From Gemmatimonadota bacterium (lineage in GTDB: Bacteria; Gemmatimonadota; Gemmatimonadetes; Gemmatimonadales; Gemmatimonadaceae): 64,000 nt of DNA. The position numbers and the translations under genes were made by a program. Below the pieces are notes generated by a model. It was given only the letters and a program-made list of their open reading frames with translations. It searched no databases and was not told the origin of the DNA. The stretch lies in NCBI GenBank assembly GCA_003155795.1, contig PMEM01000043.1, positions 31,925-95,924 of the forward strand. The letters are read 5' to 3'. The number at the start of each line of letters is the position of its first letter. Position 1 is the first letter of the stretch. This document shows, one piece after another, positions 33,110 through 53,248 of the stretch.

Positions 33110-34957
33110 ATGCCGGATAATCCCCGAGATGGAGTTTCGGGAACGCGCTCGCAACGACAGGCGCTTTCACAGTTTATGCGATTACTTCGGCTCGCTCATC
33201 CATATTGGGGAGGCCTAACCAAAGGTCTCTTTCTAGGCATCATCTTGGGCTTGCTCGGGCTAATAACTCCCTACGCCTCGAAACTCCTATTCGACAATGT
33301 GTATCCGGCTCGCGACCTAACGCTACTAAACGTCGTCGTCATCGGAGTAGCGGTCATATCTATAACGACCACGACGATGGGGGCGCTACGCGGGTACTAC
33401 GGCCAAGTGGTCACAGGGAAGCTGGGAAGCGCTGTCGGACTTCTGTACTTCAATCATGTACAGCACCTCCCAGTCGCATTCTTTGACGTGCATCGGGTTG
33501 GCGAGGTCATGAGCAGAGTAGGAGACATTCGCACCGCGCTCGGAACCGTCTCCAAGGTTATACAGTCGGTCTTGGTAAATGGCGTTTTTCTCATTTGTGT
33601 TCCACCCTTCTTAATCGCACTCAGTTGGAAGCTCTCGTTGATTGCCGTCGTGACTACACCTCTTACTGTTGGTGTTACTGCGATAACAAGCCGAGCCGTT
33701 CAACGGTACTTTCGACTCAGCGCAGAAGCGTTCGCCGAGCTTAGCGCGATTCAGGTCGAGGCATTCACGCACATTCGCACAATCAAGGCAATGGCCGGCG
33801 AGCACACGTTTTTCGCCAGCGCGCGCGCCCAAACAGTCAGTACGATTCAGGCCCAACTACGCGCGGCCCGCGTCGGCTCGATAGTGACTATTGTTAATGG
33901 GGTCGTGCGCATAGCGGGTACGGGAGTTCTAACCTGGTATGCGTGGCGATTGATCATCGCGGGTGAATTGACGCTGGGGACCTACGTAGCCTTCACGGCC
34001 TATCTCGGCTATCTAACAGGACCAATAGGTCAACTAACGGATCTCTTTTCGGACTTTCAGCAAACGGCAGTCTCTCTTACCCGCGCATTTGAGTATCTCG
34101 ACATTCTCCCTGAGCAGGACCCGCGCCTCGCTTACGTTCCGCCGTCTGCTCCGACCAAAGGTCGCGGTAGTCTGAAGCTAATCGCGGTCAACCTATCCTA
34201 TGGGTCGGGAAGGCCTATCCTAAAAGAGATATCAGCAGTTCTCGAGGCGGGCAGCATCACGGCTATTGTCGGGCCGAGCGGCGCCGGAAAGTCGTCAATT
34301 TTACGTCTCCTCTGCCGCATGAGCGAACCAACTTCCGGGCAAATCTTGTATGGAGACAGCCCCATCAGTGAATTGAAGATTGGCGACTTCCGTCGCGACG
34401 TCGCGGTGGTCTGGCAAGACCCGGCTCTTTTTCGGGGCACCATTTGGGACAACCTCGCAATGGGAACTTTGGCGGTGTCGATGCAACGAGTTCGCGAAGT
34501 GGTGGCACTGTGCCAGCTCGACAGCCTAATTGACGAGCTTCCACAGCGGTACGAAACGCCAGTTGCAGAATGGGGTGCGACTCTATCAGGTGGACAGCGG
34601 CAGCGGATTGCAATCGCACGTGCCCTTCTCCGGGATACCCCGATCCTGTTGCTCGACGAAGCGACCGCGCAAGTCGATGTGAGAATGGAGAGAGAACTAT
34701 TGACGGCGTTGTTGTCGTGGGCGACGACCAAAATCGTTGTAATTGTGACGCACCGCGTCACGACCGCAGCGATAGCCAATCAGATCTGCGTTGTGGAGGC
34801 GGGGAGAATTACGGCTTCCGGTACACACGAAACGGTTACGGCTGCGAGTCCGATGTATCGCGAATTATGGCAGGCAGCACAAGCAAGTGACACCTTTGCG
34901 GTTGATTGTCCTACAGGAATATTGCGCGCGCGCGACGGGTTGCCTGCGTTCGGGTGA
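33110..34957 (+). CDS. ABC exporter (fused permease/ATPase, no peptidase domain)
   Basis: Six-TM ABC_membrane-like N-terminal half. Walker A GPSGAGKSS, signature LSGGQRQRIAIARAL, Walker B ILLLDEAT. Confidence 0.85.
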   Translation: MPDNPRDGVSGTRSQRQALSQFMRLLRLAHPYWGGLTKGLFLGIILGLLGLITPYASKLLFDNVYPARDLTLLNVVVIGVAVISITTTTMGALRGYYGQVVTGKLGSAVGLLYFNHVQHLPVAFFDVHRVGEVMSRVGDIRTALGTVSKVIQSVLVNGVFLICVPPFLIALSWKLSLIAVVTTPLTVGVTAITSRAVQRYFRLSAEAFAELSAIQVEAFTHIRTIKAMAGEHTFFASARAQTVSTIQAQLRAARVGSIVTIVNGVVRIAGTGVLTWYAWRLIIAGELTLGTYVAFTAYLGYLTGPIGQLTDLFSDFQQTAVSLTRAFEYLDILPEQDPRLAYVPPSAPTKGRGSLKLIAVNLSYGSGRPILKEISAVLEAGSITAIVGPSGAGKSSILRLLCRMSEPTSGQILYGDSPISELKIGDFRRDVAVVWQDPALFRGTIWDNLAMGTLAVSMQRVREVVALCQLDSLIDELPQRYETPVAEWGATLSGGQRQRIAIARALLRDTPILLLDEATAQVDVRMERELLTALLSWATTKIVVIVTHRVTTAAIANQICVVEAGRITASGTHETVTAASPMYRELWQAAQASDTFAVDCPTGILRARDGLPAFG

Positions 34958-35048
34958 CCGCCTGGCGCGGATGGCTCAACACAAGCTCCTGGCTAGAAGC
35001 ACGAGTAGTGTATCGACCACACACTGTCGTTGAACTCTAGGAGAAAAG

Positions 35049-37034
35049 ATGGTGCTTCCAACATTGCTGGAGAAAGATCAACGCGCACTTAGCGATGTCG
35101 CCTCTGACATTGGCGAGCAGCTGTGTCGTGCGGCACTCATCGATGGCAAGACGCGGCACTGGCCGCGTGATTCACCAAGAGATATTCAACCAAACTCGCA
35201 CGACCCAGGCGATGCGACCGTATACGCGGGAAGTGCGGGCATATCTATTGTCCTGGGCGAGTTGTTACGCGCGGAGGGGTCAACAAGAATAGAGGAGGTC
35301 GCAGTCGGTGCTCTTAGACATGCGCTCGAATCCGACAGCACGGTCCTTCCAAGTCATTGTGGCTTCTTTAATGGCCGAGTCGGTTCTGCATACGCGGCCT
35401 TCCGCGTGGGAGAAGCCGCCGGAGATCCTACCTTTATCGAGCGCGGTCGTCGCATTGTGGACGAGCTTCACGGACATGAGTCCGAGGATTACGGAATTGA
35501 TGTCATCTCTGGGGCTGCTGGCGCAATTCCGGTTCTGCTTCGCCTCCAACGCGAGTTCAACATAGATGTAGCTGGCGCCGTAGCGGTCGGACTCGGCGAC
35601 AATCTGCTCGCGCGCGCACGGAGGGAACCGACTGGATGGTCCTGGGATTTCGCGTCAATTTCTTCGGTCCGAAACCTGTCCGGTTTCGCCCATGGCGCAT
35701 CGGGTATCGCCAGTGCTCTTCTCGACTTGTTCGATACAACTGATGACACAAGATATTTATATGCAGCCGAACAGGCTCTCCTGTTCGAGCGTCAGTTCTT
35801 CAATCACCAACTGTGTAATTGGCGCGACAATCGCCATTCAGGAATCCTCCAATTGCAAGAAGCGCACGGCATTGAAGGCGTAGCAGGATTCTTGTCAGCT
35901 GGCGGGAAACTCAAGCCCTACGAACCCTCCTATTCATGCGCTTGGTGCCATGGAGCTCCGGGCATGATTGACGTGCGGCTCCGCATTGGCCTTTTGCTCC
36001 ATGAGCCAACTTGGCTTGAAGAGGCACGCCTAGCCGAAACACCAGTAACTGCGTCGCTCTATACGACAACAAATTACTCTCTATGCCACGGCTCACTTGG
36101 GAACGCAGAGGCTTTGTATCGTGCGGCGCGCGTGTCAGGCGACGTCAGGCTCGGACAAGATATCTTGACATGGTCTACTCAAATACCGACGTGGCATGAG
36201 TCACCAACGCTGAATTGGCGGCCGTCTGGCGCTGCCGCCGACACGGATAAGGTAGAATACTCACTTATGCTCGGTCTCGCTGGTGTGGCTTACTACTGTC
36301 TCATGCTTGCCAATCCCGATGTGCCGTCAATCTTATTCCCGGGAGGGGCGGCAGGTTCTCGTTCTGAACGTGCGGAAAAGTGGCGCGACGGCTGCGACGC
36401 CGCATACTGTGACCACTTCTTTCGTGAAAGTATTCGCATTTCTTCCAGTCTAGGTAATGCGCTCAATCCAACCCGGGTTCCCGGCAACAATAGTTCCGCG
36501 CCACGGGAGCTTTACGCCTCGTTGCTAGGCGTACTGACGGCGGCGGAAGGAGTAACTACCGCTCTCTTACAAGACGCGTCAGCGATTGAACGAACACGAT
36601 TCCTTCTAGAAGTCGACTCTGAAGATCACTTAAGCGACAAGCTCGAGCGGCTTTACAGCGAAGCAGTAGGTGAGCGATGGCGTAACCTGCCGTTACGCGT
36701 GGCTCCGGGAGTGCGCGTGGTCGAAACGGACTACGATTGGGCCGAATGGTCACAACAGTCAGAGGCAGATCGCCCACCAGTGCCCCGGGCCGTCGCTCAG
36801 ACTCACCTGCTCGTGTGGTCACATCGTGGTGTAGCGCAGTACAAGATAGACGAGTTGTCAGCCCAGCTTATCGCATACATGGATCGTCCATACGTGTTAA
36901 AGGATCTATTGGACGAGACGGGTGTGGCGGACGGCGAAACGGACGAGTTGAAAGTACGCGCTGCCGTCAGTCGTGCCGTTGAGCAACTATATGCGGTTGA
37001 CGCATTGATCATTGATATTCCGCTGTTCGAGTAG
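35049..37034 (+). CDS. lanC: LanC-like lanthionine cyclase with roughly 220-aa C-terminal extension
   Basis: GFAHGASGIASAL, AWCHGAPGM and SLCHGSLGNAEAL match the LanC His and Zn-ligand motifs. The extension is beyond normal LanC length. Confidence 0.8.
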   Translation: MVLPTLLEKDQRALSDVASDIGEQLCRAALIDGKTRHWPRDSPRDIQPNSHDPGDATVYAGSAGISIVLGELLRAEGSTRIEEVAVGALRHALESDSTVLPSHCGFFNGRVGSAYAAFRVGEAAGDPTFIERGRRIVDELHGHESEDYGIDVISGAAGAIPVLLRLQREFNIDVAGAVAVGLGDNLLARARREPTGWSWDFASISSVRNLSGFAHGASGIASALLDLFDTTDDTRYLYAAEQALLFERQFFNHQLCNWRDNRHSGILQLQEAHGIEGVAGFLSAGGKLKPYEPSYSCAWCHGAPGMIDVRLRIGLLLHEPTWLEEARLAETPVTASLYTTTNYSLCHGSLGNAEALYRAARVSGDVRLGQDILTWSTQIPTWHESPTLNWRPSGAAADTDKVEYSLMLGLAGVAYYCLMLANPDVPSILFPGGAAGSRSERAEKWRDGCDAAYCDHFFRESIRISSSLGNALNPTRVPGNNSSAPRELYASLLGVLTAAEGVTTALLQDASAIERTRFLLEVDSEDHLSDKLERLYSEAVGERWRNLPLRVAPGVRVVETDYDWAEWSQQSEADRPPVPRAVAQTHLLVWSHRGVAQYKIDELSAQLIAYMDRPYVLKDLLDETGVADGETDELKVRAAVSRAVEQLYAVDALIIDIPLFE

Positions 37035-37059
37035 CGCTCTCACGGGGCGAAAACTTTGT

Positions 37060-39039
37060 ATGGGCATGAATTTTATTATGTCGGCTACAAATGAACGCCT
37101 TGTCGTACCCAAGGCAGCCAGATGTGCTCGCGCGGGACTTTTTGATAGACTGCTCGTTACACTGAGCTTGCTACTCTTGTGGAATGCGACAATTGGTGTA
37201 CCGGCACAAGGCCAGGGAATACTGAATTCGGGATTCGAAGTCCCTAGCGACATCGATCCAGCTCATGCCTGGGGGTGGAGTAGCGATCAAACTGCGTATG
37301 AAGCGTTGAGAGACTGCCGTGTTGCAAAGACGGGCCGCTGTTCGCTGTTAGTGCGCTCCGCGCCTTCTACGAATGCGTCTGACACCGGTACCGTCGCTCG
37401 CCAAATCACCGCTGCCGCGTTAAGGTCCAAGGACGTGGAAGTTCAGGTAAGCGTCCACATCGGCGCTGGCGATGGCCAAGTTAGTCTTTGGATCCGTGCC
37501 GACGGACCTGACGGCCGGAACGAAGGTTTTATTGAAACCCGCCTGCAAGAATCAGCAGACTCGACACAATGGACTACGCTGCGAGCTCGGCTGCACGTTA
37601 CGCACAAAACGCAAGCCTTGACCGTCGGTTTTTTGGTCGTCGGGAGACGGACCGTCTGGTTCGATGATCTACGGATACTCGTAAACGGTTCTGACTACGA
37701 TACTGTCCTAGCGGCCGAGGTACAGCATGCGGTCCCGGAACGAAAGCTTCGTCAATATGCCACTTCGATGGGAACTTCTAATCCTCTGATACCGCTTTCG
37801 GACACGGCCGCGCTCGCGCGGGTCATCGACGGTGCGCGAGTTGTTGCGCTCGGTGAAGCAACGCACGGCACGCATGAGTTTTTTGCAATGAAGGACCGCG
37901 TGATACGGTCGCTCTTCGAACGAAACGGTTTTACTGCGGTATTGATGGAGTGTAGCATGCAGCAAGCTCGGCGCGTAAACGCGTATATACTCACTGGCGC
38001 TGGAGATCCTCGTAAGCTCGTTGCAAACCTTGGATTCTGGTCGTGGGACACTGGCGAGGTAGTTGAACTGATCAGATGGCTTCGGCTATATAAGCTTCAA
38101 GGTCATGAAGTGGAGTTCTGGGGATTCGACACGCAATCCCCCGAAGGAGCGATGGACAGCGTGATTGCGTTCTCACAATCGACAAACCCTGCTATCGCAG
38201 ATCGGATCGCCCGGCGCTATGCTGCAATTCGTCCAATATTACAAAGGCTTCCAGCAACTGGTGGCGGCACCGATTCCGCAAGTTCACAATTCTGGGTTAG
38301 CGCTTCGCGCGACGGGCTTGCACTACTGGATCAGCAGGTTGGATCGGACGTTAACGTCGGTTCACGCGAGAGGTGGGCCCGCCTATATGCAAATATTGTT
38401 GTTCAATCAGGCCTGCAGTCACTTGCCGCAAGCACCCGAAACGGATTAGTACGGGATAGTATTATGGCGGCGAACATCGAGTGGATTATCGCCCAGCTGC
38501 CAAGTACGGCACACGCAGTCGTTTGGGCGCATAACGGACATGTAGAGCGGAGCCAGGCATCCATGGGCTGGCATCTTAACCAGAAGTTCGGTGATAAGTA
38601 CCGAGTTATCGGGATGACCAGCTATGAAGGAAGCTACCTTGCGGCGGGCCCTAACGGTTTTCGGGCTTATTCTGAGGGTGTCGCGCCCGTCGGTAGTATT
38701 GAGTCGGCTCTTCATCGTTTAGGGGTTCCGATCCTGCTATTGAACGTTCGCTCGTTGCGAGCCGATCCAGCTATGATTTGGTTCGCCGAACCACACGAGT
38801 TCCTTGCCGTTGGCGCGATTGCGGAGGAACCATCGTTTTCCCCGGTGACCTTGGCGACAGCGTTCGATGGGCTAATTTATTTCGCTCATACTTCCCCATC
38901 CGCTACTGCGCTTTCGCTGTTGCTACCGGCCACAGTTGCAACGCACGGCTTCATTCGATGGAGCTACGTCCCACTGCTGGTAATTATCGTAGCAGTCAGC
39001 GCGCTAACCGGGCTATATGTTAAAAAGCGCGCGAAGTAG
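37060..39039 (+). CDS. erythromycin-esterase-family protein with N-terminal beta-sandwich module and C-terminal TM anchor
   Basis: VVALGEATHGTHEFFAMKDRVIRSLF matches the Ere/ChaN-type motif. Signal-like N-terminus. C-terminal VPLLVIIVAVSALTGLYVKKRAK. Confidence 0.65.
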   Translation: MGMNFIMSATNERLVVPKAARCARAGLFDRLLVTLSLLLLWNATIGVPAQGQGILNSGFEVPSDIDPAHAWGWSSDQTAYEALRDCRVAKTGRCSLLVRSAPSTNASDTGTVARQITAAALRSKDVEVQVSVHIGAGDGQVSLWIRADGPDGRNEGFIETRLQESADSTQWTTLRARLHVTHKTQALTVGFLVVGRRTVWFDDLRILVNGSDYDTVLAAEVQHAVPERKLRQYATSMGTSNPLIPLSDTAALARVIDGARVVALGEATHGTHEFFAMKDRVIRSLFERNGFTAVLMECSMQQARRVNAYILTGAGDPRKLVANLGFWSWDTGEVVELIRWLRLYKLQGHEVEFWGFDTQSPEGAMDSVIAFSQSTNPAIADRIARRYAAIRPILQRLPATGGGTDSASSQFWVSASRDGLALLDQQVGSDVNVGSRERWARLYANIVVQSGLQSLAASTRNGLVRDSIMAANIEWIIAQLPSTAHAVVWAHNGHVERSQASMGWHLNQKFGDKYRVIGMTSYEGSYLAAGPNGFRAYSEGVAPVGSIESALHRLGVPILLLNVRSLRADPAMIWFAEPHEFLAVGAIAEEPSFSPVTLATAFDGLIYFAHTSPSATALSLLLPATVATHGFIRWSYVPLLVIIVAVSALTGLYVKKRAK

Positions 39040-39232: not shown

Positions 39233-39856
39233 TTAGACTATACGATCGATTCCGGACGTGCGTTTGACAAATAAATGTTCCGCGCGCCTGCGGATGATGG
39301 GACGTTGCTTATACGCTTGTATCGCGGAAACGAGATCGGACATTTTGCACCTGTAGCCCTTCGCAGCGTATCGATGGGTTCGGCATAGGCATTTTAAGGT
39401 GCTAACGTTATTTGGATTCGACTTGCCAAGGATGCCGGCAGCGAAGCATTCTAGAGTGTTTGCGCCTACAAAAAGGACGTTGTCGCCTAAACTGTAAACC
39501 AGCGCTGATATTTCAAAATCCTCCAAACGTGATAGCAAGTGCCGCGCATCACGGAACACTGCTTTGTTTACATCTATCGTAGTGTAGTTGACTTTGCCTG
39601 TCCCACAATCTTGCAATGCGTATCGTCTCCCGCGCAGCGAGTTAAGTCGCTTCTGATCTTCACTGTTACCCGCAGCGATATCCACGTCTCCAAACGGCTC
39701 GGCTCCCGTTAGACAGTGCCGTATGTAGCCCCCGTACAAGTACATAGAGCGAACGCCAAGGCCGGCTATACCTGTAACTGAGAGTAGACGTCGAACTCCG
39801 GCGGCTAGTCGAGGAAATTCGTCCAACCGCCGTATCTCTAGCGGAGACTGATCCAT
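39233..39856 (-). CDS. minimal CCA-adding-enzyme/poly(A)-polymerase-like nucleotidyltransferase
   Basis: MYLYGGYIRHCLTGAEPFGDVDIAA matches the GGxVRD...DxD head-domain motif. LEDFEISALVY resembles RDFTINAL. Confidence 0.6.
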   Translation of the reverse strand: MDQSPLEIRRLDEFPRLAAGVRRLLSVTGIAGLGVRSMYLYGGYIRHCLTGAEPFGDVDIAAGNSEDQKRLNSLRGRRYALQDCGTGKVNYTTIDVNKAVFRDARHLLSRLEDFEISALVYSLGDNVLFVGANTLECFAAGILGKSNPNNVSTLKCLCRTHRYAAKGYRCKMSDLVSAIQAYKQRPIIRRRAEHLFVKRTSGIDRIV

Positions 39857-39898: not shown

Positions 39899-40438
39899 TT
39901 ACACAATTACGACCCCCCCCGAATGGCGCGCGACTTCTTCGGGATTCAGTTCCGGAAAATCCTTTGGCAGTAAGTCGATAATTCGCAAGAATTCTGGGAA
40001 AGGAATGCCATAACCTCTTGAAGCATACTTATACGTTCTTAGCAGCGAAATCAGAGCTCGGCTGGGTGAAATGCGATTCACTGTCAGCAACCGCTGCGCG
40101 ACATGCTCGAAGAAGTGTGATCCAATCAAGAATTCTCCGTCATGGAACGCGATCTGACACACCGTGAAGTCGGCGTCGCGAAGTACGCACGTTGGGTCTG
40201 AATAAATTACTGGGGAACTTACTACGAATGGCGAAGCCGTCAGCTGCGCCGCGAATTGCGCACGGGATGACTCGCTCACGAATGCCACGTTTACATTGGC
40301 AGTTGTCTCGCGTGTCCATAAAGCGCGGACTGCACTGCCAAAAAGCGTGTACTCTGACGCGGGCAAAGCCGCCAAATCGTACCGCTCCAGCAGATTGCGC
40401 AGGGCTCGCAAGACCGACGGGGAACTCTCAGTTCGCAT
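39899..40438 (-). CDS. paralogue of the nucleotidyltransferase-like protein lacking catalytic carboxylates
   Basis: Aligns with 39233..39856 and 48400..48987 (FGSAVRALWTRE, DFTVCQIAFHDGEFLIGSHFFEHVAQRLL). The DxD position reads NVNVA. The ORF extends to 40537; Met at 40438 chosen from the paralogue alignment. Confidence 0.5.
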   Translation of the reverse strand: MRTESSPSVLRALRNLLERYDLAALPASEYTLFGSAVRALWTRETTANVNVAFVSESSRAQFAAQLTASPFVVSSPVIYSDPTCVLRDADFTVCQIAFHDGEFLIGSHFFEHVAQRLLTVNRISPSRALISLLRTYKYASRGYGIPFPEFLRIIDLLPKDFPELNPEEVARHSGGVVIV

Positions 40439-41293
40439 TCGTTGGCGCCCGCCATTTAGTGGTCTGCCTCTTATCCGACTTCCAGCCATACTAAGGTGGA
40501 GTTGAGCTCCCGTTATTGCAAGACCTTGACGTCCCACCGCAAAATGGGTCTAAGGTTAAGTTAACCCGGGTCTGGCCGCACCCGAACTACGGCGAGAGCT
40601 AGGGTGAGTTGGGCATGGTTTCGAAAGCTTCGACGCTAAGGTCCGCGCCAGATCTCGACTGCTGTGAGCCCCGATTAGACGGGACGCTCTGGGAAGGTAG
40701 TTTCACTTCTCAGAAGGGGCTATCTCAATGGAGACACATCGGCGCGGTGCAGATGGCAGGGAATCAACTGACTCGATCGGGGTACCGCTCAGCCGGAGCG
40801 ACATCATCCGCCTTCAATCTGTATCGTGTCACTGGTTACTCCAAGCGGCTCCGCCACATCGCGCTGCCGTAAGCCAAGTGCCATCCGCCGGTTCCGGACT
40901 GATCTCCAATCGTCTTCGGGTCCCCGCGCTTACGCTGGCCGAACCTAGCGCGACGCGGGGACTGCCAGCGTTATTGGTGAAGATCGCCCAGTCGATGATG
41001 CTGGTTCACCCTCCCGACGCTGACAAGCCCGAAAACCTGATCGCATCAATCGATGCGGCGCTTGCAACCGCGAAGTTATAGCGAGTCGATTGTATGACGT
41101 GTGTTGCGAATATTGGCTGGTGGCGGCGACCCGTCTTTTTGATTGGCCAGCGGAGTTTGAGGCAACAACAGCAAGAGTCGTTGTGCCTCCGACTCTCGCC
41201 AATGACGAAGATGGACAAACAGGCACTGTCGAAAGGACCTACGCAAGCTGCCGCCCGTCGAGACCGGCGAGTCCGCGAGACTGCTGGCGAAGT

Positions 41294-43747: not shown

Positions 43748-44498
43748 CTGTAGAGTGTCCGGATACAAATCGGCGGTGGCGGCAGCGGGTTCGTGGTGCC
43801 GCACGAGTCGAAGCCTCTGCCTGCAGCCCAAACGGTCTGGGTATTGACGCGTGGTTGCAGTATTGCCCAAGCTACCTGCGCACGTTGGCGTTTGTAATCG
43901 GTGCTCTGATCTCATAGAAGCATCTGGTGTTGCGGCATGATTCGCAGTTCGCTCTCCGCGTGCGCGGATGCGGCGAGCAGCGGTACTTCGATAGGAGGTT
44001 AGACTCATTTACTTCGAGCGATTGATAGTCATCTAAAGTACCTCACTATTGCGGTCGTGGAGCAATCTGGAAACATCGTTTCGGAGAAGGGGCTCTACCA
44101 CGCAGACTGCTGCGCTCATTTCCACCGTGGAGCCGTATCGGCCAATCGAGGCAGGAGTAGAGACATTTCCATTTTGCCCATGGGTTTACGATGTGCTGGC
44201 CCCGAGGGGATCGGTCTTATTTGGCGCGCCAATGTCGCACCCCAAGGAGCTCGAGGCAATTTCCCACGCTAACTAAAAGCCGGCTGAGCGAGACGCGTTG
44301 TTACTAGCTCGCATAGTAAGCGGCCGCCTCATTCCGGAAGTCTATGCGCGAGCTGGCCCGCAGGGTGACACCGTGCGTGTACTAGTACCATTGCGGCGTT
44401 TCGCGTTCGCACCAAATGGACATGGGTTCTCGACGTAGCGGAGCTAGATGACGCCGTTGGTACAAAATGCACCGTATTGCTACCGCCGCCATACTGAG

Positions 44499-45713
44499 TT
44501 AAGACGCGCTACTCGCGCGCGCGCGCAGCTCGTCGAGAAGCAGTTCTGACACGCGGGCCTTTCCCGTCACTATCTTGCCGCGAACGGCGAAACCGCGCTT
44601 AAAGTCTCCCGGTAACCTACCCATAGTATCATGCAGGTCGATTCGTACGACTACCGCAAACCGTCCGGTACCATCAGTCGGCGGAGACATCGGAGTGCCC
44701 GCGGTGCCAAGTCGCGTCGCAGATTCGGGGGCTACCGAGACCACGCTACCGTGGAGATCCCGGCCCTTCAAGAACAACGCAGAGGGAAGAGTCAGAATGA
44801 CGGCTTGGCCGACGCGCACATCGTGAACATTTCGCTCATCGACTAGCAGGCGCGCTGTCCAACTGCCGAGATCTTCGATCTCGAGAATTCCCTCGCCGGC
44901 TGATACGGACGCGCCGATGAGATCTCGTGGCCGTTCAGTGAGCACGATTCCGTCGATCGGGGCAGTAAGATCCACTCGTCGGCGTTCGCCACGCGCGTGA
45001 GCAACGTCAGCGCGAAGTCGATCAAGCTCAAGAGTACTCTTGGCGAAGTCCAATGAATCGAGCTTTGCTTGCTCGCGCGCAGCAACCGCCGACTTCACTC
45101 GTGCTTCTGCCGACTGCACATCAGCGATCGCAAGATCAACATTGACACTCTTGCCGATCGTATAGGCTTTCAGCACTGAATCGACGTTGGCCCTTAGGCT
45201 AAACTCCATCAATCGCTGCCGAAGAGCCGCTTGCGCCTTAATTACATTTGTCTGTTCTTGGGTTACTTGAGCTGTCTTTTGGATCAGATCGAGTGGCGCA
45301 GTAGCTCGAGCACGGTTGAGCTCACCGCGACTCTCATCGTACTGGATTTCGAGGCGTTGTAGGTCCGCGTCGGCAGACACTGGATCTAAGCGTGCTACTA
45401 TTTGTCCGACTTTGACTGGCTGGCTAACGTCAACATCCACCTGTGTAACAATTCCGCCAATTGAAGGGCGCACATTCGCGACGTGGAGTGGCTCTAAAGT
45501 TCCATCAGCGCCGACAGATACAGTCACGGAAAGCAAGAACGCGGTGAGAGCACTTAGCAGCACCAGCGTCGCAAATGCGCCGATTGTAAGGCCAACCGCG
45601 CGCTGCACAATACGCTGCCCCGGGACTATGACGTCATCGAGCGAGGGCAGCTCAAACACGTACTTCGCGTTAGCCGAGTTAGCCATTCGGACAGCTTGTT
45701 GGCAAGTTGGCAC
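44499..45713 (-). CDS. HlyD-family membrane fusion (periplasmic adaptor) protein
   Basis: N-terminal TM, long coiled-coil region, lipoyl/beta-barrel segments (VKVGQIVARLD, GQAVILTL). Alternative start at 45686. Confidence 0.75.
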   Translation of the reverse strand: MPTCQQAVRMANSANAKYVFELPSLDDVIVPGQRIVQRAVGLTIGAFATLVLLSALTAFLLSVTVSVGADGTLEPLHVANVRPSIGGIVTQVDVDVSQPVKVGQIVARLDPVSADADLQRLEIQYDESRGELNRARATAPLDLIQKTAQVTQEQTNVIKAQAALRQRLMEFSLRANVDSVLKAYTIGKSVNVDLAIADVQSAEARVKSAVAAREQAKLDSLDFAKSTLELDRLRADVAHARGERRRVDLTAPIDGIVLTERPRDLIGASVSAGEGILEIEDLGSWTARLLVDERNVHDVRVGQAVILTLPSALFLKGRDLHGSVVSVAPESATRLGTAGTPMSPPTDGTGRFAVVVRIDLHDTMGRLPGDFKRGFAVRGKIVTGKARVSELLLDELRARASSAS

Positions 45714-45788
45714 TAACTGCGCGGAGAGTGCACCAAAAAAGGAGTCACACCTATCACATTCGCCAAAGCACGTACGACTCCCCTCCGA

Positions 45789-46088
45789 CTACGGCATGTA
45801 ACACGGAGCGCAGGTCCACGACATGTCTTGAGTTGGACACGCACAGGATCCGCAACTTTGCTGACAAGTATTGCATTCGCTATAGTGGCAGCTCATCGGG
45901 CACGTTGTGCCGGCCGTACAGGCCCAACACGTCTTTACACTTGGACAAGTACAATATCGGAGCTGGCTGGTTGAATCTCCTCCGTAATACGTTGCCGTCC
46001 CTCCTGCGACCTTCGCAAGCGCGCTGTCACCCAGCTTTCGCAGTGTTTCGCGAGTAATGGTGAGCTTGCGCCTTTGTGGATTGTCCAT
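45789..46088 (-). CDS. lanA: lanthipeptide/RiPP precursor peptide with double-glycine leader
   Basis: Leader MDNPQRRKLTITRETLRKLGDSALAKVAGG. 69-aa core with 13 Cys and 19 Ser/Thr. Lies between the C39-ABC and HlyD genes. Confidence 0.8.
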   Translation of the reverse strand: MDNPQRRKLTITRETLRKLGDSALAKVAGGTATYYGGDSTSQLRYCTCPSVKTCWACTAGTTCPMSCHYSECNTCQQSCGSCACPTQDMSWTCAPCYMP

Positions 46089-46201: not shown

Positions 46202-48187
46202 TTAAATCAAGACATTATCGGGTAGTTTTAGGACACGTCCTTTCCACTCAGGCGGAGCTTCTTGTGCAGATAGGACGACAAGAATTCCGGTAAGATCGCA
46301 TAGTATATCAAGGGCATGGTCACGAGAAGCCGCGTCGAGAGACATCGTGGGTTCGTCGAGTATATAAACTTGCGATGTAGCGATGAGCGCACGAGCAATG
46401 GCAAGTCGGGCTAAGACAGATGGGCGCAGCTGGCCGCCGAGCGGATCGAGGCGCGTTTGGAGACCGAGAGGGAGACTGGAAATCTCGACATCGAGACGAA
46501 GCGTAGCGCAGACGTCGCGCAGGGCGGTGTCCGGGACCCCGCTCCTTCCGCACCGGAGATTGTCTGCGATAGAGCCGTGATACCAGCAGGCTCGCTCTAG
46601 CAAGGCACCCACGTCTTGAAACTTTGAATCGCGAGATGAGATGTTTACGTCGATGCCGTTCCACAACACACGTCCACTTTGGGGTTTCAGAATCCCCAAT
46701 ACTATCTGGCCAAGCATCGTCTTCCCGCTACCGGACGGACCTGTAACCCAAAGCCGATCCCCTTCGAGGAGAGACAATGAGAATGGCGGCGAGTTCGCGC
46801 ACGCAGCGGCGCCAATCTTGACATCTTCCACGCAGATTCTTGTCACCCGTTCCCGCACAAGCGCACCCGGCACAGACGATGCTGGCTGACTCAACTTCCG
46901 TTCTTCAAGCGAATGCGGAGAGAAGGCAGACGCGGCGAGTTTCATATTCTCCTCAACTGCTCGAAAACATAAGCCAACCACACAGGCACCCACGAATTGT
47001 CGAAATGGAACCGTAGCCGACCACTCGATCGCTATTACAACGGTTGTCGCAAGAGCCGACAGGGCGAGCCATTTTAGGGGGCCCAAGTTCTTTTTCTCGC
47101 GCTTGGATTCGCTCTGTGCAACTCTACGCGTCTCTAATACATATTGTAATACGTTAGAGCGAGTACCGGTCGCAGCGAATGTTGGCATACCCGTCAGCGA
47201 GCGCGCGACCGCTGCCCTGTGACGAGTCCAATATATATTCTCGGATTCTGGAGGATGAAGGACCGCCGCAATAAAGGTGGCCCACAGGCTTGTTGTTAGG
47301 ACCAATGCTGACACAGCCAACGAATGAACCAATATTGATTGGCCGGCCGGTGCACACAGCAATGGAAGAAGTGTTCCGGTAATCAACGCCGCAGTCCACG
47401 TACCCTTCGCTGCACTCGATCCTGCAACTGTATTCGCCTCGAATGCCGCTAGCTGCCACCTACCGACGTTACTCTTGGAAACAGTAGGGGTCGCGGAAGG
47501 CGGGAAAAGTGCCGACTGGGCTATCGTCAACCACAAGCGTTCTCGCCGCGTTACTGCTTCTTCCAAAGCGTGGGCTAGGACAAGTAACGAAAGCGCCGTA
47601 GCGGTCGTCGCGCTAACGGCGGCGATGACCGTTGGCGCAACGTCGTTTCTAGTGAACGCGACGCCAAGAAGCAATCCGGCCACCAAAGCGCCCAGGACGG
47701 CGACCGTGAGTTCGTACGAGGTTACCGTATTCAGCGCGCCTCGGAGAGAACTTGTGCAACGAATGATCCAGCCCAAGACACTTCGTGAAGGTTTGCTAAA
47801 GTGGAGAGCTGTCCCTCCGAAACGCGCTATTGCCTCACTAGTTGCCACGGCCCTGCGGCCCGCGGCAGGATCGACAATTGTAATCTCTGATGCACCTGCG
47901 TGTTCTAGAATCACAAAGTGCATGGGCGTCCATTCCAGAATTGCCGGAGTTGATAATAGATTCAGCTGCGTCGGCTCAATTGCCACGCCAACGCCGTGTA
48001 AACCGGATGCATGGGCAATGGCCAACAAGTCAGCGGCTGTCATGACGTCGCCGGACGCCTGAATCGCGAGCGTCATATCCCGGGCGTAGTAGTCCAACAC
48101 CATGGCGATACAGACAAGACCGCAATCGGAATTGCTGGACTGCCGAATTATGCGGACACGCCCAAACCTCTTGAAGGGATTTCTCAA
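46202..48187 (-). CDS. lanT: bifunctional C39 peptidase-ABC transporter (PCAT/LanT type)
   Basis: C39 motifs QSSNSDCGLVCIAMVLDYY and MHFVILEH. Walker A GPSGSGKT, Walker B VYILDEPT. Divergent signature PLGGQLRPS. Confidence 0.8.
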   Translation of the reverse strand: MRNPFKRFGRVRIIRQSSNSDCGLVCIAMVLDYYARDMTLAIQASGDVMTAADLLAIAHASGLHGVGVAIEPTQLNLLSTPAILEWTPMHFVILEHAGASEITIVDPAAGRRAVATSEAIARFGGTALHFSKPSRSVLGWIIRCTSSLRGALNTVTSYELTVAVLGALVAGLLLGVAFTRNDVAPTVIAAVSATTATALSLLVLAHALEEAVTRRERLWLTIAQSALFPPSATPTVSKSNVGRWQLAAFEANTVAGSSAAKGTWTAALITGTLLPLLCAPAGQSILVHSLAVSALVLTTSLWATFIAAVLHPPESENIYWTRHRAAVARSLTGMPTFAATGTRSNVLQYVLETRRVAQSESKREKKNLGPLKWLALSALATTVVIAIEWSATVPFRQFVGACVVGLCFRAVEENMKLAASAFSPHSLEERKLSQPASSVPGALVRERVTRICVEDVKIGAAACANSPPFSLSLLEGDRLWVTGPSGSGKTMLGQIVLGILKPQSGRVLWNGIDVNISSRDSKFQDVGALLERACWYHGSIADNLRCGRSGVPDTALRDVCATLRLDVEISSLPLGLQTRLDPLGGQLRPSVLARLAIARALIATSQVYILDEPTMSLDAASRDHALDILCDLTGILVVLSAQEAPPEWKGRVLKLPDNVLI

Positions 48188-48399: not shown

Positions 48400-48987
48400 C
48401 TAACGAGTAGGAAGCACAGTTCCGCCCGCAAGCGAGTAGAGATCGAGCGGCTGACTCGGCGCTCCCGACAGATTTAACGCATTAAGAATCATATCCAAGT
48501 GTTCAGCTGAAACGCGAAATCCCATCGCTACTAACCGAAATGTGCGGAGCAGCGTGATGTAAGCCGTGGCCGGCTCAATGTTTCTCAGAACGAGTAATTG
48601 TTCCGCGACATGCTCGAAGAAGCTGTGTCCAACGATGAATTGCCCGTCATGCCAGGCGACTTGATCTATGGTAAAAGCACCTCGTTGCACAATTTGAGCG
48701 GTAGAAATGCCATTTCCGTTGGCGATTTCAAGAGCAGCGTGGCGTAGCGGTACGCGCGTGAGGAAATCGACTTCCGCTGCTCGGCTCGTGAAATGGATCC
48801 GTACCAGCGCAGGTGCTTCCCTTGTCCAAAGTGCCCTAATCCCATCGCCCGAGAGCGCGTAAGATTTAGCCGACGTTCCGTTTAGTCTAAAATCGCTCCT
48901 AAGGCTACGAAGGTGCTCGGCAATTATTGGGAAGCGAGCTTCGTCCTCTTGGGCGACAGCGTTCCAGTCCGCGATATTAGTTGTCAT
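48400..48987 (-). CDS. second catalytically degenerate paralogue of the nucleotidyltransferase-like protein
   Basis: YALSGDGIRALWTRE...AFTIDQVAWHDGQFIVGHSFFEHVAEQLL aligns with 39899..40438. Sits between lanB and lanT. The ORF extends to 49044. Confidence 0.5.
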   Translation of the reverse strand: MTTNIADWNAVAQEDEARFPIIAEHLRSLRSDFRLNGTSAKSYALSGDGIRALWTREAPALVRIHFTSRAAEVDFLTRVPLRHAALEIANGNGISTAQIVQRGAFTIDQVAWHDGQFIVGHSFFEHVAEQLLVLRNIEPATAYITLLRTFRLVAMGFRVSAEHLDMILNALNLSGAPSQPLDLYSLAGGTVLPTR

Positions 48988-49088
48988 TCGAGGACTGACC
49001 AACGCCGGCTTAGGCGGTAAGAAGGGCGGGGAGACCGGTACCAACCCGGCTGAGAGGTCGTACTAGCTGCGATTAGGTGTACTTTCAT

Positions 49089-52000
49089 TTACGCGTTAGT
49101 GGCATCATGGGATGGAGGGGGTGTTACCGCTCGCACTCGCGCGAACGCAGACTCGTGGAAACGACGAATGAAATCGTAAACTCTCTGTTCCTCAACCGGG
49201 TTAGTTGTTCCTACCATTCGGTTTACGTGCATGTGGGTGAGGCTCAGAGCAATGTCCTCGAGAGCCGCTCCGAGCTCGCCGCAGCGCAGCAGATCGTGAA
49301 GGCGTGCCGCCGAGGCCGCAACTCGCATCGATCGTCGCACTAATTCTTCGCATGCATTTGCAAAAGTGGGCTCCGTTGCCGCGTGAAGGCCAAGGACGGT
49401 TTCAATATCGCCGCGGTTAGCACGATACGCTTCACTCCACACGCGGCGTGCGTCCCCCGAGGGCGGGCGTAGACGTCCAAGCAAGAGTACACGCTGCTCA
49501 GCCGTAAATTGAAGATCGGCAAGCAATGTATCTATTCCTCGCAGTAAAATCATGTCGCGAGCATGCGCATTCTCATCCCCTGGGTAGCCCCCCAGTACCG
49601 TAATAGCAAAGTCACTATCGGCGCAAAAAACATCCTCCGCAATGGTAATGGAACGACTCCCGCCATAGCGTTCGATCTCGCGCGAATAGGTATCGTAACG
49701 CAGGGACGTGAGCAGGCGGTTATCGAGGAATTCTTCTGATCGCGCTTCGAGATCTGGTAAGACTTCGCACCGGATCCGAGACGGATCGCCACAAAGGCGA
49801 AGCCGAATATGCGGTTTTGGATCTGAATACCGAATGAAAAACCAACGATCGATGGCGCCCGAGTCACGCGCCGTCTGAATCACGGGTGCGACGAGATGGC
49901 TAAGAATTCGGTTAGTCGTCCCCTCACCTGCGAAGAGTTGCGCGTACGTCCATCCAGACGTCGGCGTAAACTTTCGTCGGATTGAGGTCGGCGCGATCGT
50001 TACTGTGTTCGGCGCCATTACTTCTTCCCGACTCGTCTGCCGGCGTCGTAAGAACGGAACGATCAGTTCGTGGGTGAATCTTCCCTCTGGTCCTTCTACC
50101 ACGAGAGAATTGTCGTCGGGATATTGCTCCGCCAGTTGTACGGCGTGGTGCTTTCTGATCGACTCGACGACAACATCCACAGCGATCGGAAGATCCAGAT
50201 CCAGCGACAGTAAACTGTCTCCCTCTGAAAGGAGTACTCGTCGCGGGATACCGCGCTCGTTACGGAGCAACTGGAATGCTTGGTACGTAGCGACTCTTGC
50301 GGTACTCGGCTTCAAGGCTAATTCGGATGCAGCAATTCTCCATTGAGCGCGGCAGAGGACCGCCTGCCCGTAAACCACTCGCGGAAGAAAGGGCAATTGT
50401 TCCAGCCGCCCCCAAACCCAAGACGCGCCGAACAGTACGCCTTGTTCACGTAGAAGTGCGAAAAAGCGGTAAATCGGGAGGTTGCGAGGGTGACTCAAAT
50501 TGTGCGCCGTAGTAATGCGCGGCAGGACCTCGCGACCGAGACGGCGAGACCACAAAACTACACGATCGTCCCGAACGGTTACGAAGAGATCAGATATGGG
50601 AATCTGCTGCGACGCTGGCGCTCCAGATCTTCCCAGGAAAGGAATTTCATAGTCGCGAAGCACGGGCCGACAAAGGATGTTTCCCATGCGTCCTTCAGGC
50701 AGATGCACGACTTCAGCGAGAGCCTGATCGGGGAATAGCGCTGCCTCGCTACTGAGAAAGCGCTGTAGCGCATGCGTAAGATCCTCATCGCAGTGACAGA
50801 ATCGGCCCAGCAGATTTCCACCGGATGGCCCGGTAACCATATGAAATAGCACTCTAAGCGGGCTAGGTGTGCTTCCGGGCCGTACATCACGCACCAGCGT
50901 AACGACTGCAGCTATGGACGATGGTAACGGCGACGGAGTGCGTGACGCAAGCGAGGCAACGTCGTCGGCAGTAAGCGCGACTTCCACAGCCCCTGATTTC
51001 GCGGCACGTATTACAAGACCAGCCAAAACGGCCTGGCGAGCTCCCTCAGCACTTAGCTCTCGTAGATCACCTTCGCTAACGGCGCCTTCAAGACCTAGGT
51101 TGTCTAGGCCGATTCCAATTTCCGCATCGAGTGCCTCCGCGAGCGGCACGAGTTCCATCTCATACCGTTCGCGAAACGCGCGACGGAACGAGCGAAGAGG
51201 ATCGGTCGGTAGCGTTATACGTTGGAGAAGATCAATCCCCGCCTCAATCTCATGCATCTCAACAGCTCCGATAACCGCAGCCTCAAGACTCGTTGACATG
51301 TCTACTTGGAAAAGCCGCGCAGGATCCGCCCGTACCGGGAACTCGCCCAGGAGCTCGGCGATCCCGTTATAGTCCTGTACCGAGCAGCCGATGCCACGAG
51401 CGTCGATGTTTGCAAGCAGTTCCCGGGCGCGTTTAAGTCGATCGACCGTTGGCGCGGTCACCTCCTGCGTAGATAGCGTGTCAATCATGCCGTCGAGTGC
51501 GGCCATACCGGTCACCAACGGCTCGATATCCGCCACGATGATTTGAGCATCAAGGAGTTCATACACGAAATCGCGCGCCTCGTTGACTGAAACGTCTTCG
51601 TTCACCAATGCAAGTGCCAGTTCCGCGATCGTAGCTCCATTCTCAGCAAGTCGAATAACTTCGTCCAGAGGGTCTGACCGGTCGACAGCAACAAGTCGGT
51701 ACGCCCGATCCCCACCTTGACTGTATGCTTCCATATAATGAAAGCGGCCCCCGGCTGCGTACAGACTTGAGTTCGGTCGGATGGTAAATACGGGTCCGAA
51801 TGTACGATTAAGCAGAACTGCATCGGCTAAATCGCCAAGAAATTGTGTGTCCAACCGAGTGGTACGCCGGTAAGTTTCCCGGCTTGCGAGGCGTAGATCC
51901 GTTTGGTCGCCCACTGCCCCGAGCGCGAATCCGGCAAACAAGCCGAACGGAGTCGCACGTGCGGACATGCGTGCGAAATAACGAAACAGGCTGCGACCAA

Positions 52001-52349
52001 TGCGATGACCGCGCTCTGACTCTGGGTTGATTTCCCAGGCGGCAATTCGATTGTGAAGATCCGGAGTAGCGAGATAAATCGCCTCGCGCACTCCACGCAA
52101 CTTGAGAACGCGAGTCATCAATCGCCAGACACTTGCATCGTCCGCAGCGATCCCCTCGCTAAGTTCACCCGACTCACCAGCGCAAGCAAGTCCTACCGCG
52201 ATCGTCTCTCCAACCATAAACTCGTTCGAGGCGAGGAATGGCGTCCTTAAAGCAAAGAACCCACCCGCAGAATAGCCGGTCAGCACTGACGGTACGGCGG
52301 ACAAAGCTCTTGAAGGAATCGCTGCGTCGCCATCGTGAGTTGTATTCAT
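49089..52349 (-). CDS. lanB: full-length class I lanthipeptide dehydratase (LanB)
   Basis: 1086 aa. N-terminal GGFFALRTPFL motif. C-terminal SpaB_C/thiopeptide-type domain WFFIRYSDPKPHIRLRL. Confidence 0.85.
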   Translation of the reverse strand: MNTTHDGDAAIPSRALSAVPSVLTGYSAGGFFALRTPFLASNEFMVGETIAVGLACAGESGELSEGIAADDASVWRLMTRVLKLRGVREAIYLATPDLHNRIAAWEINPESERGHRIGRSLFRYFARMSARATPFGLFAGFALGAVGDQTDLRLASRETYRRTTRLDTQFLGDLADAVLLNRTFGPVFTIRPNSSLYAAGGRFHYMEAYSQGGDRAYRLVAVDRSDPLDEVIRLAENGATIAELALALVNEDVSVNEARDFVYELLDAQIIVADIEPLVTGMAALDGMIDTLSTQEVTAPTVDRLKRARELLANIDARGIGCSVQDYNGIAELLGEFPVRADPARLFQVDMSTSLEAAVIGAVEMHEIEAGIDLLQRITLPTDPLRSFRRAFRERYEMELVPLAEALDAEIGIGLDNLGLEGAVSEGDLRELSAEGARQAVLAGLVIRAAKSGAVEVALTADDVASLASRTPSPLPSSIAAVVTLVRDVRPGSTPSPLRVLFHMVTGPSGGNLLGRFCHCDEDLTHALQRFLSSEAALFPDQALAEVVHLPEGRMGNILCRPVLRDYEIPFLGRSGAPASQQIPISDLFVTVRDDRVVLWSRRLGREVLPRITTAHNLSHPRNLPIYRFFALLREQGVLFGASWVWGRLEQLPFLPRVVYGQAVLCRAQWRIAASELALKPSTARVATYQAFQLLRNERGIPRRVLLSEGDSLLSLDLDLPIAVDVVVESIRKHHAVQLAEQYPDDNSLVVEGPEGRFTHELIVPFLRRRQTSREEVMAPNTVTIAPTSIRRKFTPTSGWTYAQLFAGEGTTNRILSHLVAPVIQTARDSGAIDRWFFIRYSDPKPHIRLRLCGDPSRIRCEVLPDLEARSEEFLDNRLLTSLRYDTYSREIERYGGSRSITIAEDVFCADSDFAITVLGGYPGDENAHARDMILLRGIDTLLADLQFTAEQRVLLLGRLRPPSGDARRVWSEAYRANRGDIETVLGLHAATEPTFANACEELVRRSMRVAASAARLHDLLRCGELGAALEDIALSLTHMHVNRMVGTTNPVEEQRVYDFIRRFHESAFARVRAVTPPPSHDATNA

Positions 52350-52450
52350 CAGTTCTTTCGTTGAAGGATTTCCGCCAGACCGAAGTGCAATCCCTTTTCA
52401 CCTGAATTCGGGAATCAGCACTCCGGGCACTCAACAGGTGGTAGCACAAT

Positions 52451-53248
52451 TCACGCGTCCCGTAATCGCCTAACAATGCAATCGACAAATGCCTTCGCGT
52501 CCATCTCCGCGCGGATCTCGAGAACCCCCATCCCTGTTAATTCCCTACATTGTTTGTCGAGTCTACGATGTTCGCTATACCCAAGGAAGGTAGCCGTCCG
52601 CTTCATGCTGAGGTCGCGGTCCATAAGACAGGGAAACGCGCGAACGAGCCGCGCTGCAGCAACCAACCGACGCGTCGAAGTAATTCGCGCTCGGAAAATC
52701 CATCTATCAAGTGAGCGTCGTGTCAGTCCAGCTGCAGCCGCCAACTGCTGCGCCGACTGAGGAGCGATCGGGGCTGTGAACATTAGAGTGATCGCGAACT
52801 GCAATCGCTCTGGGAGCACAGAAATGAGGGGACTAAGCCGTTCGGCGAGTTGCAGATCAAGGCCGGCCATGGGCAGCGCAGCGAAAGCCTCCCCCAACCG
52901 ATCCATTCCAGATGTCGGATTTCTAAGGACTACATCAACGTATGAGACACGGGACAGTACAAGTAACGCGACGATAAGCCGCGGTGTCAGCGAGCCATAC
53001 AGCACGACTGGAATTTGGCGCCTGTGTAGAGCGGCAGCGATCGCGTAAATGTTTGTCTCGTCAGTCAGCGCCGGATCCAACACGAGAACGTCCACACCAA
53101 TCCGCACCGCTTCAATATCGAGCCCGCAGACGATGTGTTGCGTCTGATGAGGACCCACGCTGAGAAGCGCTGTCCGAAGGGAGGCAGCTGCGAGGGCCGG
53201 GAGCCGGATCAGCACATGCACGTCAATTGGCCTCAGAAGGCGAGCCAT
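52451..53248 (-). CDS. AraC-type HTH regulator with receiver-like N-terminal domain (putative)
   Basis: C-terminus FLGYSEHRRLDKQCRELTGMGVLEIR resembles the AraC second HTH. N-terminal VDVLVLDP...IPVVLYG resembles a CheY-like fold. Confidence 0.45.
   Translation of the reverse strand: MARLLRPIDVHVLIRLPALAAASLRTALLSVGPHQTQHIVCGLDIEAVRIGVDVLVLDPALTDETNIYAIAAALHRRQIPVVLYGSLTPRLIVALLVLSRVSYVDVVLRNPTSGMDRLGEAFAALPMAGLDLQLAERLSPLISVLPERLQFAITLMFTAPIAPQSAQQLAAAAGLTRRSLDRWIFRARITSTRRLVAAARLVRAFPCLMDRDLSMKRTATFLGYSEHRRLDKQCRELTGMGVLEIRAEMDAKAFVDCIVRRLRDA

Follow-up and report, generated by a model that had tools for sequence, protein, structure and literature searches.

The window analysed here is a 64,000-nucleotide stretch of contig PMEM01000043.1 from a Gemmatimonadota bacterium, and all coordinates are those of this whole stretch. 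Between positions 33110 and 53248 it carries the genes of what the sequence supports as one class I lanthipeptide cluster, with a LanB dehydratase, a LanC cyclase and a Cys-rich precursor, LanA, whose leader ends in a double glycine. Pfam and NCBIfam scans recovered every gene that an earlier note on this DNA had listed (LanB, LanC, the precursor, a C39 ABC transporter, HlyD, a second ABC transporter, an S41 protease and an esterase). In addition, the cluster contains three genes for proteins of about 210 residues that had gone unmentioned and that resemble nucleotidyltransferases (NT1 to NT3). The protein with the C39 domain resembles ATP-binding cassette transporters that contain a peptidase (PCATs) and is referred to below as PCAT-like. 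The cluster genes are the following.

33110..34957, + strand: ABC2, a canonical ABC half-transporter of 615 residues with a transmembrane domain and a nucleotide-binding domain (NBD), without a peptidase domain (Pfam)
35049..37034, + strand: LanC cyclase, long form, 661 residues (Pfam LANC_like)
37012..39039, + strand: erythromycin-esterase-superfamily protein, predicted to be exported (Pfam Erythro_esteras)
39233..39856, - strand: NT1, a minimal class II nucleotidyltransferase-like protein of 207 residues (motif and fold)
39899..40537, - strand: NT2, an NT1 paralogue in which the metal-binding motif is degenerate, NVNV (BLASTP against NT1, E = 9e-7)
41294..44008, - strand: S41-family serine protease, predicted to be exported (Pfam Peptidase_S41)
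44499..45713, - strand: HlyD-family periplasmic adaptor (Pfam HlyD_3 and HlyD_D23)
45789..46088, - strand: lanA, encoding a 99-residue precursor (open reading frame and leader motif)
46202..48187, - strand: PCAT-like protein with C39 and ABC_tran domains (Pfam)
48400..49044, - strand: NT3, a third NT-like paralogue, between lanB and the PCAT-like gene (alignment)
49089..52349, - strand: LanB, a full-length glutamyl-tRNA-dependent dehydratase of 1086 residues (Pfam Lant_dehydr_N and Lant_dehydr_C)
52451..53248, - strand: AraC-type helix-turn-helix protein at the head of the - strand block (Pfam HTH_18, just under the cut-off)

The + strand block ends at 39039 and the - strand block at 39233, so the two blocks are convergent, and not divergent as they were first described. 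The lanA gene sits between the PCAT-like gene and hlyD, all three on the - strand. The AraC-type protein matches HTH_18 with an E-value of 7.7e-8 and 33.0 bits, against a cut-off of 33.6 bits, and it is solely from its position that we infer it to be the cluster regulator.

The assignment of LanB and LanC to class I machinery holds. LanB matches PF04738 (Lant_dehydr_N, E = 3e-140) and PF14028 (Lant_dehydr_C, E = 7e-56), the amino-terminal glutamylation and carboxy-terminal elimination domains both being present, and in an alignment with 24 homologues it keeps all 150+ invariant columns, including the RxxxRxT and HMHVNR motifs. LanC matches PF05147 (LANC_like, E = 1.5e-48) over residues 53-428 and contains the zinc ligands (Cys, Cys, His) and the catalytic His of a stand-alone cyclase; His215, Trp299-Cys300 and Cys346-His347, which belong to the AHG, WCHG and CHG motifs, are invariant across 27 long homologues. 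The AlphaFold2 (AF2) model of LanC has a pLDDT of 89, and its best fold matches in Foldseek are LanCL, LicM2, MadC and NisC. Both enzymes are present in a single copy genome-wide.

LanC belongs to a long form of the cyclase, with about 30 homologues of 650-715 residues, and has about 220-230 extra residues carboxy-terminal of the LANC_like domain. This extension (residues ~440-661, window 36370-37034) is modelled as a confident fold, with pLDDT values mostly between 85 and 95, and consists of a helical bundle followed by a unit of strands and then three helices (residues 549-649). To judge from the model, the latter unit could be a leader-binding RRE. The extension has no Pfam match at E 10, and the Foldseek search with the whole model is dominated by the LanC domain.

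The precursor LanA reads MDNPQRRKLTITRETLRKLGDSALAKVAGG-TATYYGG-DSTSQLRYCTC..., with Gly-Gly pairs at positions 29-30 and 36-37. It can be laid out as a 30-residue leader (LxIxRx5L ... VAGG), the spacer TATYYGG and a 62-residue core with 13 Cys and 17 Ser/Thr; counted from Gly30 onwards, the remaining 69 residues contain 13 Cys and 19 Ser/Thr. The leader, L9-T-I11-T-R13-ETLRK-L19 ... VAGG30, conforms to the pattern LxLxKx5L...GG with conservative I and R. Also, Val-4, Leu-7, Leu-12 and Leu-15, numbered relative to Gly30, agree with the PCAT recognition rule for leader positions (summarised in PMC10885120), whereas the second Gly-Gly disagrees with it. A G-rich ribosome-binding stretch lies upstream of the lanA ATG, and a six-frame motif scan found lanA to be the only credible leader-plus-Cys-rich open reading frame genome-wide. 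NCBIfam already holds a leader model, NF038153 (lant_leader_L1a), and LanA may work like a member of that family while being a divergent relative of it. Just past the lanA stop codon, on the - strand at 45725-45795, a stem-loop is followed by UUUUUU.

Class I precursors normally carry an FNLD-type leader removed by a LanP protease, and the earlier note had named the discovery of such a precursor and a LanP elsewhere as a ground for abandoning its interpretation. The genome-wide check found neither: there is no subtilisin (Peptidase_S8, PF00082) anywhere in the 3.98-Mb, 94.7% complete genome, the genome has a single credible precursor, and the cluster contains no FxLD-type Cys-rich small open reading frame, which excludes this candidate. 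The proposal of a double-glycine leader with C39 and ABC/HlyD proteins in place of FNLD and LanP is therefore borne out by the leader motif, the presence of C39 and the lack of S8.

This combination of class I enzymes and double-glycine leader is not new, contrary to what the earlier note had implied. Many class I LanAs, then seen in Bacteroidetes, have an LxLxKx5L leader ending in Gly-Gly, often with a C39 protease encoded alongside, and when these are counted about a third of all LanAs have double-glycine leaders (Walker et al. 2020, PMC7268733). Experiments have established the viridisins (A1/A2), from a Gram-negative source, as class I products whose leaders are of the double-glycine type (PMC9680876), and Ped15.1/15.2 of Pedobacter lusitanus and thalassomonasins A/B are among the further double-glycine examples cited in the same paper. 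In our survey of 80 LanB-relative loci from seven phyla (Acidobacteriota, Actinomycetota, Myxococcota, Planctomycetota, Gemmatimonadota, Chloroflexota and Bacillota), a C39 transporter occurs within 10 kb in 43 loci, and precursors of the form KKLxLxKETLRxL..VVGG are found at about 35. The LanA leader agrees with dozens of such precursors encoded next to LanB relatives. The C39 neighbours are scattered over the whole of a maximum likelihood tree of 86 LanBs (SH-like support). That a Gram-negative bacterium can pair class I enzymes with a double-glycine leader and a leader-cleaving pump is thus established knowledge, and the interpretation in the earlier note is partly supported, being right on mechanism and wrong on novelty.

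Of particular interest is a sub-clade within this tree. The LanBs of the window and of three related loci (L095, L090 and L098) form one clade with an SH-like support of 0.996, in which L095 has the closest relative of the window LanB (42% identity). Together with L099, these loci share much of the gene content of the window. In the metagenomic contig L090 the gene order is LanC-LanB-ABC2(49%)-HlyD(37%)-NT-NT(47% and 39%)-PCAT-ADH-S41(29%), with identities to the window proteins in brackets and ADH denoting an alcohol dehydrogenase. In L098 it is LanC-LanB-LanA-NT-PCAT-NT-NT-ADH-S41, and in L099 LanA-NT-NT-PCAT-ABC2(51%). An aromatic and glycine-rich spacer follows the first Gly-Gly in four of the four sub-clade precursors: VAGG-TATYYGG-D in the window, IAGG-ALYYGGGGG in L090, AAGG-YWYGYGG-D in L098 and AAGG-MWYYGGGG... 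in L099.

Precursors of a second type occur in L098, where three genes at 3-1214 encode peptides with the leader KLKLRLDDLQVDTFQT and cores built of C(D/N)(A/G)SC(N/Y)GTC repeats; they stand alongside one double-glycine-leader precursor, so that two leader types are found in one cluster. A further related locus, L097, contains at 6109-16876 a split LanB, a long LanC, ABC and HlyD genes, a small S8 protease and an LDDLTVESF-type leader (LDDLxVESF). From cluster to cluster, leader type and protease type change together, and the ABC/HlyD pair is constant.

The genome is that of a lipopolysaccharide-containing diderm, with an lpxD-lpxC/fabZ-lpxA operon that includes an LpxC-FabZ fusion, and it has about 14 OEP/TolC-family genes, none of which is in the cluster; the diderm status assumed earlier is confirmed by both. 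An HlyD adaptor working with an exporter of double-glycine-leader peptides is the usual diderm route, as in CvaAB/TolC (PMC8277102, PMC10231218). The PCAT-like protein matches C39 (PF03412, E = 1.3e-17) and ABC_tran (E = 1.5e-15). In its C39 domain the catalytic Cys and His are kept, as are the Asp and the oxyanion Gln, and its RQSSNSDCG, MHFVIL and IVDPA segments align with canonical PCATs. The NBD, in contrast, lacks the features of a competent one (Q-loop Gln, LSGGQ and H-loop His): Glu stands in place of the Q-loop Gln, the signature reads LGGQ and carries an insertion, there is no H-loop His and the carboxy terminus is short. The divergent signature PLGGQLRPS pointed out in the earlier note is present as part of a wider divergence. 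The H-loop His is missing in four of the four NT-associated PCATs (window, L090, L098 and L099), and the signature or the Walker B Glu is variously lost in the counterparts from L090, L098 and L099. No match to ABC_membrane (PF00664) was found in the PCAT-like protein even at E 10, and none in these three counterparts; a crude hydropathy scan of the window protein finds four segments, in what would be a divergent membrane domain, and the CydC model aligns with its residues 284-633.

ABC2, on the other hand, has canonical motifs throughout its NBD (ABC_membrane, E = 7e-39; ABC_tran, E = 2e-31) and is 49%, 51%, 52% and 39% identical to the ABC genes of L090, L099, L097 and L089, respectively. 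The HlyD protein matches TIGR01843 (E = 3.5e-20), has one amino-terminal transmembrane segment at about residues 35-65, and is 37% identical to the L090 adaptor and 33% to that of L097. Genes for ABC2-like and HlyD proteins are adjacent in L090, L097, L089 and L101, and in L090 they are translationally coupled. The pairs in L089, L097 and L101 occur without any PCAT or C39 protein, which argues that they can form an exporter on their own. Because the NBD of the PCAT-like protein is decayed, ABC2 is canonical and conserved, and ABC2-like/HlyD pairs occur without C39, we infer that ABC2, HlyD and a TolC would form the exporter and that the C39 protein would be mainly a membrane-bound leader peptidase.

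Two other arrangements of the same proteins can be envisaged. A homodimer of the PCAT-like protein might, with HlyD and TolC, be a working leader-cleaving exporter, ABC2 then serving, for example, as a LanFEG-like pump for self-protection. Walker A (GPSGSGKT) and Walker B (ILDEPT) are indeed intact in the window copy, hlyD lies just downstream of lanA and the PCAT-like gene and shares their strand, with ABC2 on the opposite strand at a distance of 11 kb, and clusters with a canonical PCAT and LanBC exist without a second ABC transporter (L003 is an example). We nevertheless think this arrangement unlikely, since it has to reckon with the loss of the H-loop His in all four NT-associated PCATs, the variable loss of the Q-loop, signature and Walker B Glu in L090 and L099, the missing ABC_membrane match, the adjacency and translational coupling of ABC2 and HlyD genes in L090, and the recurrence of ABC2-like/HlyD pairs without a PCAT.

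Alternatively, the PCAT-like protein and ABC2 could pair as a heterodimeric ABC exporter whose ATP sites are asymmetric, comparable to the NHLP/Nif11 sets of two ABC proteins and an HlyD. The best NCBIfam match of the PCAT-like protein is TIGR03796, ABC2 matches TIGR03797 (E = 2e-90) and HlyD weakly matches TIGR03794, although all three scores are far under the family cut-offs. Among NT-associated clusters, ABC2 is also present in all those whose sequence is not truncated ahead of it (window, L090 and L099), but ABC2-like proteins pair with HlyD in L089, L097 and L101 with no PCAT partner. Moreover, the catalytic and signature sides of the PCAT-like NBD are both degenerate, which would impair both composite sites. 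A heterodimer is accordingly a decidedly improbable arrangement, and an exporter of ABC2, HlyD and a TolC is the one adopted below.

Since L090, L095, L097, L098 and L099 share them, the + and - strand genes belong together. The earlier note would have given up its reading had the + strand block not been conserved with the - strand block; ABC2 does recur with the - strand set (L090 and L099) and a long LanC directly adjoins LanB in L095, so that the esterase-like gene is the only part of the + strand block left unmatched. That ABC2, LanC and the esterase-like protein are unrelated neighbours, leaving a - strand block without its own cyclase or a decaying remnant on a mobile element, might be suggested by the 12 kb and change of strand between the LanC gene and lanB, the different, short LanCs of L090 and L098 and the adjoining ISL3 transposase, but it is highly improbable given that LanC is the sole copy in the genome, that long LanCs lie directly beside LanB in both the closest relative (L095, 42%) and in L097 (with an ABC at 52% and an HlyD at 33%), that ABC2 recurs with the - strand gene set, and that every open reading frame is intact, with the catalytic residues of LanB, LanC and C39 kept.

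Two proteins of the cluster are predicted to act outside the cytoplasm. The S41 protein matches PF03572 (E = 1.7e-9, 37.9 bits, above the 24-bit cut-off). Its likely start is M88, at position 43747, which gives a protein of 817 residues with a signal peptide, the hydrophobic amino terminus ending AVA|QS. The Ser in GAGAVSYAES aligns with the catalytic Ser of CtpB, and the position of the dyad Lys is occupied by Thr (TAGTNG versus TFGKG). The protein may be of a Ser/His type, with His as general base, to judge by a DGHG motif and a weak match to CPAF over residues 564-648. Homologues are found in L090 (29%) and L039 (45%); for the S41 protein of L098, BLASTP matches the amino-terminal module only (36%), and Pfam annotates an S41 domain there. 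The S41 gene is kept in the window, L090 and L098. By analogy, we would guess at one of two roles: trimming the spacer, which would be a second step of maturation, or protecting the producer in the manner of the nisin resistance protein NSR, which is an S41 protease that cuts nisin (PMC4698656).

The esterase-like protein has a likely start near 37060 and matches Erythro_esteras over residues 303-627 (E = 2e-57), with matches in the Protein Data Bank to 2RAD/2QGM and EreC; hydrophobic segments lie at residues 47-65 and 647-665, the second being a carboxy-terminal transmembrane anchor. It shares with the S41 protein a homologous amino-terminal module, beta-sandwich-like, with 26% identity over 135 residues (E = 7e-7), encoded at 37060-37800 in the esterase-like gene and at 42900-43747 in the S41 gene; the S41 protein of L098 has this module too. 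The two clusters closest by synteny, L090 (12873-13997) and L098 (11114-12256), have a gene for a zinc-type ADH between the C39-ABC/NT genes and S41, and this enzyme may be a LanJ(A)-like dehydroalanine (Dha) reductase. The ADH gene is not in the window, which has the esterase-like gene instead.

The distribution of these genes bears on the origin of the cluster. LanB was missing from 79 relatives, 20 of which are genomes from the same genus, and 400 genomes of the phylum contained no member of the NT family. Also, an ISL3-family transposase (DDE_Tnp_ISL3 and zinc ribbon) lies at 29741-31453, 1.6 kb to the left of the cluster. The absence of LanB and NT from relatives, together with the ISL3 element on the flank, indicates that the cluster is accessory and was probably acquired horizontally.

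Taken together, we consider it likely that the locus is a class I lanthipeptide cluster with a double-glycine leader, gained by horizontal transfer, with the following division of labour as read from the sequence. LanB would dehydrate Ser and Thr residues of the core with Glu-tRNA(Glu), and LanC would close up to 13 thioether rings. The C39 domain would cut LanA after Gly30, the PCAT-like protein serving mainly as a membrane-bound leader peptidase or dock and not as the motor. A homodimer of ABC2, with HlyD and a TolC encoded elsewhere, would then move the peptide across both membranes. Finally, the S41 protease, perhaps with the esterase-like protein, might act in the periplasm or extracellularly, either trimming the TATYYGG spacer or protecting the producer as NSR does.

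Several observations weigh against this picture. LanA scores 17.5 bits (E = 0.0034) against NF038153, below the 22-bit cut-off of that model. The stem-loop behind lanA was considered as an attenuator of the sort that is common after lanA genes, and was rejected since it does not fold significantly better than shuffled sequences (z = -1.0). The NBD of the PCAT-like protein in the window keeps Walker A and the Walker B Asp-Glu, with which some ATP binding or hydrolysis is possible. The LanC type varies: the window and L095 have the long form, whereas the LanCs of L090 and L098 are short and have no or only local BLASTP similarity to that of the window. None of the related clusters has a counterpart of the esterase-like gene. 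In addition, four or five loci make up the sub-clade, and the contigs of three of these are cut. The role given to the S41 protein is guessed from position and precedent, and every mechanistic step beyond domain identity is a prediction.

The three NT-like proteins are a further distinctive feature of the sub-clade. NT1 has an intact GG..R...DxD motif A (YGGYIRHCLTG..GDVDIA) and a DF[TE]I motif B, while NT2 and NT3 have lost the metal-binding Asp pair and NT3 has a degenerate catalytic motif. The AF2 model of NT1 (pLDDT 91.8) has as its best Foldseek matches the head and neck of class II CCA-adding enzymes (E = 5e-7, probability 1.0). The NT proteins, at 207-214 residues, align only to about the first half of these 340-440-residue enzymes (TM-score by target of about 0.3) and have no tRNA-holding body and tail domains. 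NT1 shares 39% identity with the L090 and L099 counterparts, NT2 is 47% identical to an L090 gene and 41% to genes of L099 and L098, and a gene in the position of NT3, between LanB/LanA and the PCAT-like gene, is also found in L098.

A word-based homologue search with the NT family returned self matches only, and a metagenome scan with the NT alignment found one 1.5-kb contig. An exhaustive HMMER search, however, yielded 216 relatives, 29 of them below E 1e-10. Relatives occur as adjacent active and inactive pairs or as fusions, and NT homologues carry precomputed Gad2 (PF26128) matches. Where there is enough context, their neighbours are an ABC/HlyD pair and a membrane protease, either a C39-ABC or an Rce1-like one, and the NT genes always come in twos or threes next to such a module for peptide export and processing. 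The set spans L089, L090 and L098-L101, and includes a radical-SAM cluster (L089) as well as L101, which argues against a role specific to the tRNA chemistry of LanB. The gene neighbourhoods would instead tie the NT-like proteins to the processing and export module. Two other candidates were rejected: with ARAGORN and Rfam, no RNA gene, tRNA(Glu) or other, was found in the cluster to explain the NT genes, and the open reading frames of ~200 residues that follow LanB in L002 and L003 have no similarity to NT3.

A search of the literature found no paper linking NT-like proteins with lanthipeptide clusters, and we know of no described role for small CCA-adding-enzyme-like proteins in peptide natural products. 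It is conceivable, although we regard it as doubtful, that the NTs, an ATPase-degenerate C39-ABC (elsewhere an Rce1-like membrane protease), an ABC protein and HlyD constitute an undescribed processing and export module into which different chemistries of peptides that are made on ribosomes and modified post-translationally plug in (LanBC, radical SAM and perhaps ATP-grasp), and in which the intact NT performs a new step. If so, the intact NT might nucleotidylate the cargo or its spacer, or control the exporter.

The sub-clade therefore appears to be a small and apparently undescribed variant, marked by an ATPase-degenerate C39-ABC, a separate ABC/HlyD pair, NTs, an S41 protease and the YYGG spacer. 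Its C39-ABC keeps the protease and sheds the ATPase motifs while a separate ABC/HlyD pair would take over transport, which would amount to a natural split of PCAT functions, and in this variant peptide export genes consistently have small CCA-adding-enzyme-like proteins as neighbours. The precursor could form up to 13 thioether rings, which would be unusually many for a lanthipeptide, and the YYGG spacer and S41 protease suggest a two-step maturation. To our knowledge, class I lanthipeptides of the double-glycine-leader kind have almost never been obtained from their native Gram-negative producers.

The cluster can be compared with several known systems. With class I clusters of the double-glycine-leader kind it shares separate LanB and LanC proteins, an L-x-[LI]-x-[KR]-x5-L...GG leader, a C39 domain, the lack of a LanP and a Gram-negative host. 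It differs from those examples in a much longer and far Cys-richer precursor (13 Cys) with an aromatic and glycine-rich spacer, and in having a degenerate C39-ABC NBD, a second ABC transporter, three NTs, an S41 protease and an esterase-like protein. Like CvaB/CvaA/TolC of microcin V, it combines a double-glycine leader, a C39-ABC and an HlyD-family adaptor with an outer-membrane channel encoded elsewhere. CvaB, however, is a single ATPase-competent PCAT, whereas the C39-ABC of the window lacks the H-loop His as well as other motifs, and a separate canonical ABC transporter is conserved with the adaptor.

The NHLP/Nif11 set (TIGR03796, TIGR03797 and TIGR03794) likewise consists of one ABC protein with C39, one without it and one adaptor. 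The window proteins score only 140, 304 and 22.4 bits against the respective cut-offs of 853.3, 709.4 and 156.2 bits, the leader is neither of NHLP nor of Nif11 type, and the genes are not adjacent. The S41 protein resembles NSR in its predicted export, its lanthipeptide context and the absence of the Lys of the classical Ser/Lys dyad, although no direct sequence similarity between the two was detected; NSR is a resistance factor of non-producers, whereas the S41 gene lies inside producer clusters and encodes a large extra amino-terminal module. Finally, the NTs share with class II CCA-adding enzymes and poly(A) polymerases the head and neck fold and, in NT1, motif A, and they differ from CCA-adding enzymes in being only about 200 residues long and in that two of the three copies lack the metal-binding Asp pair.

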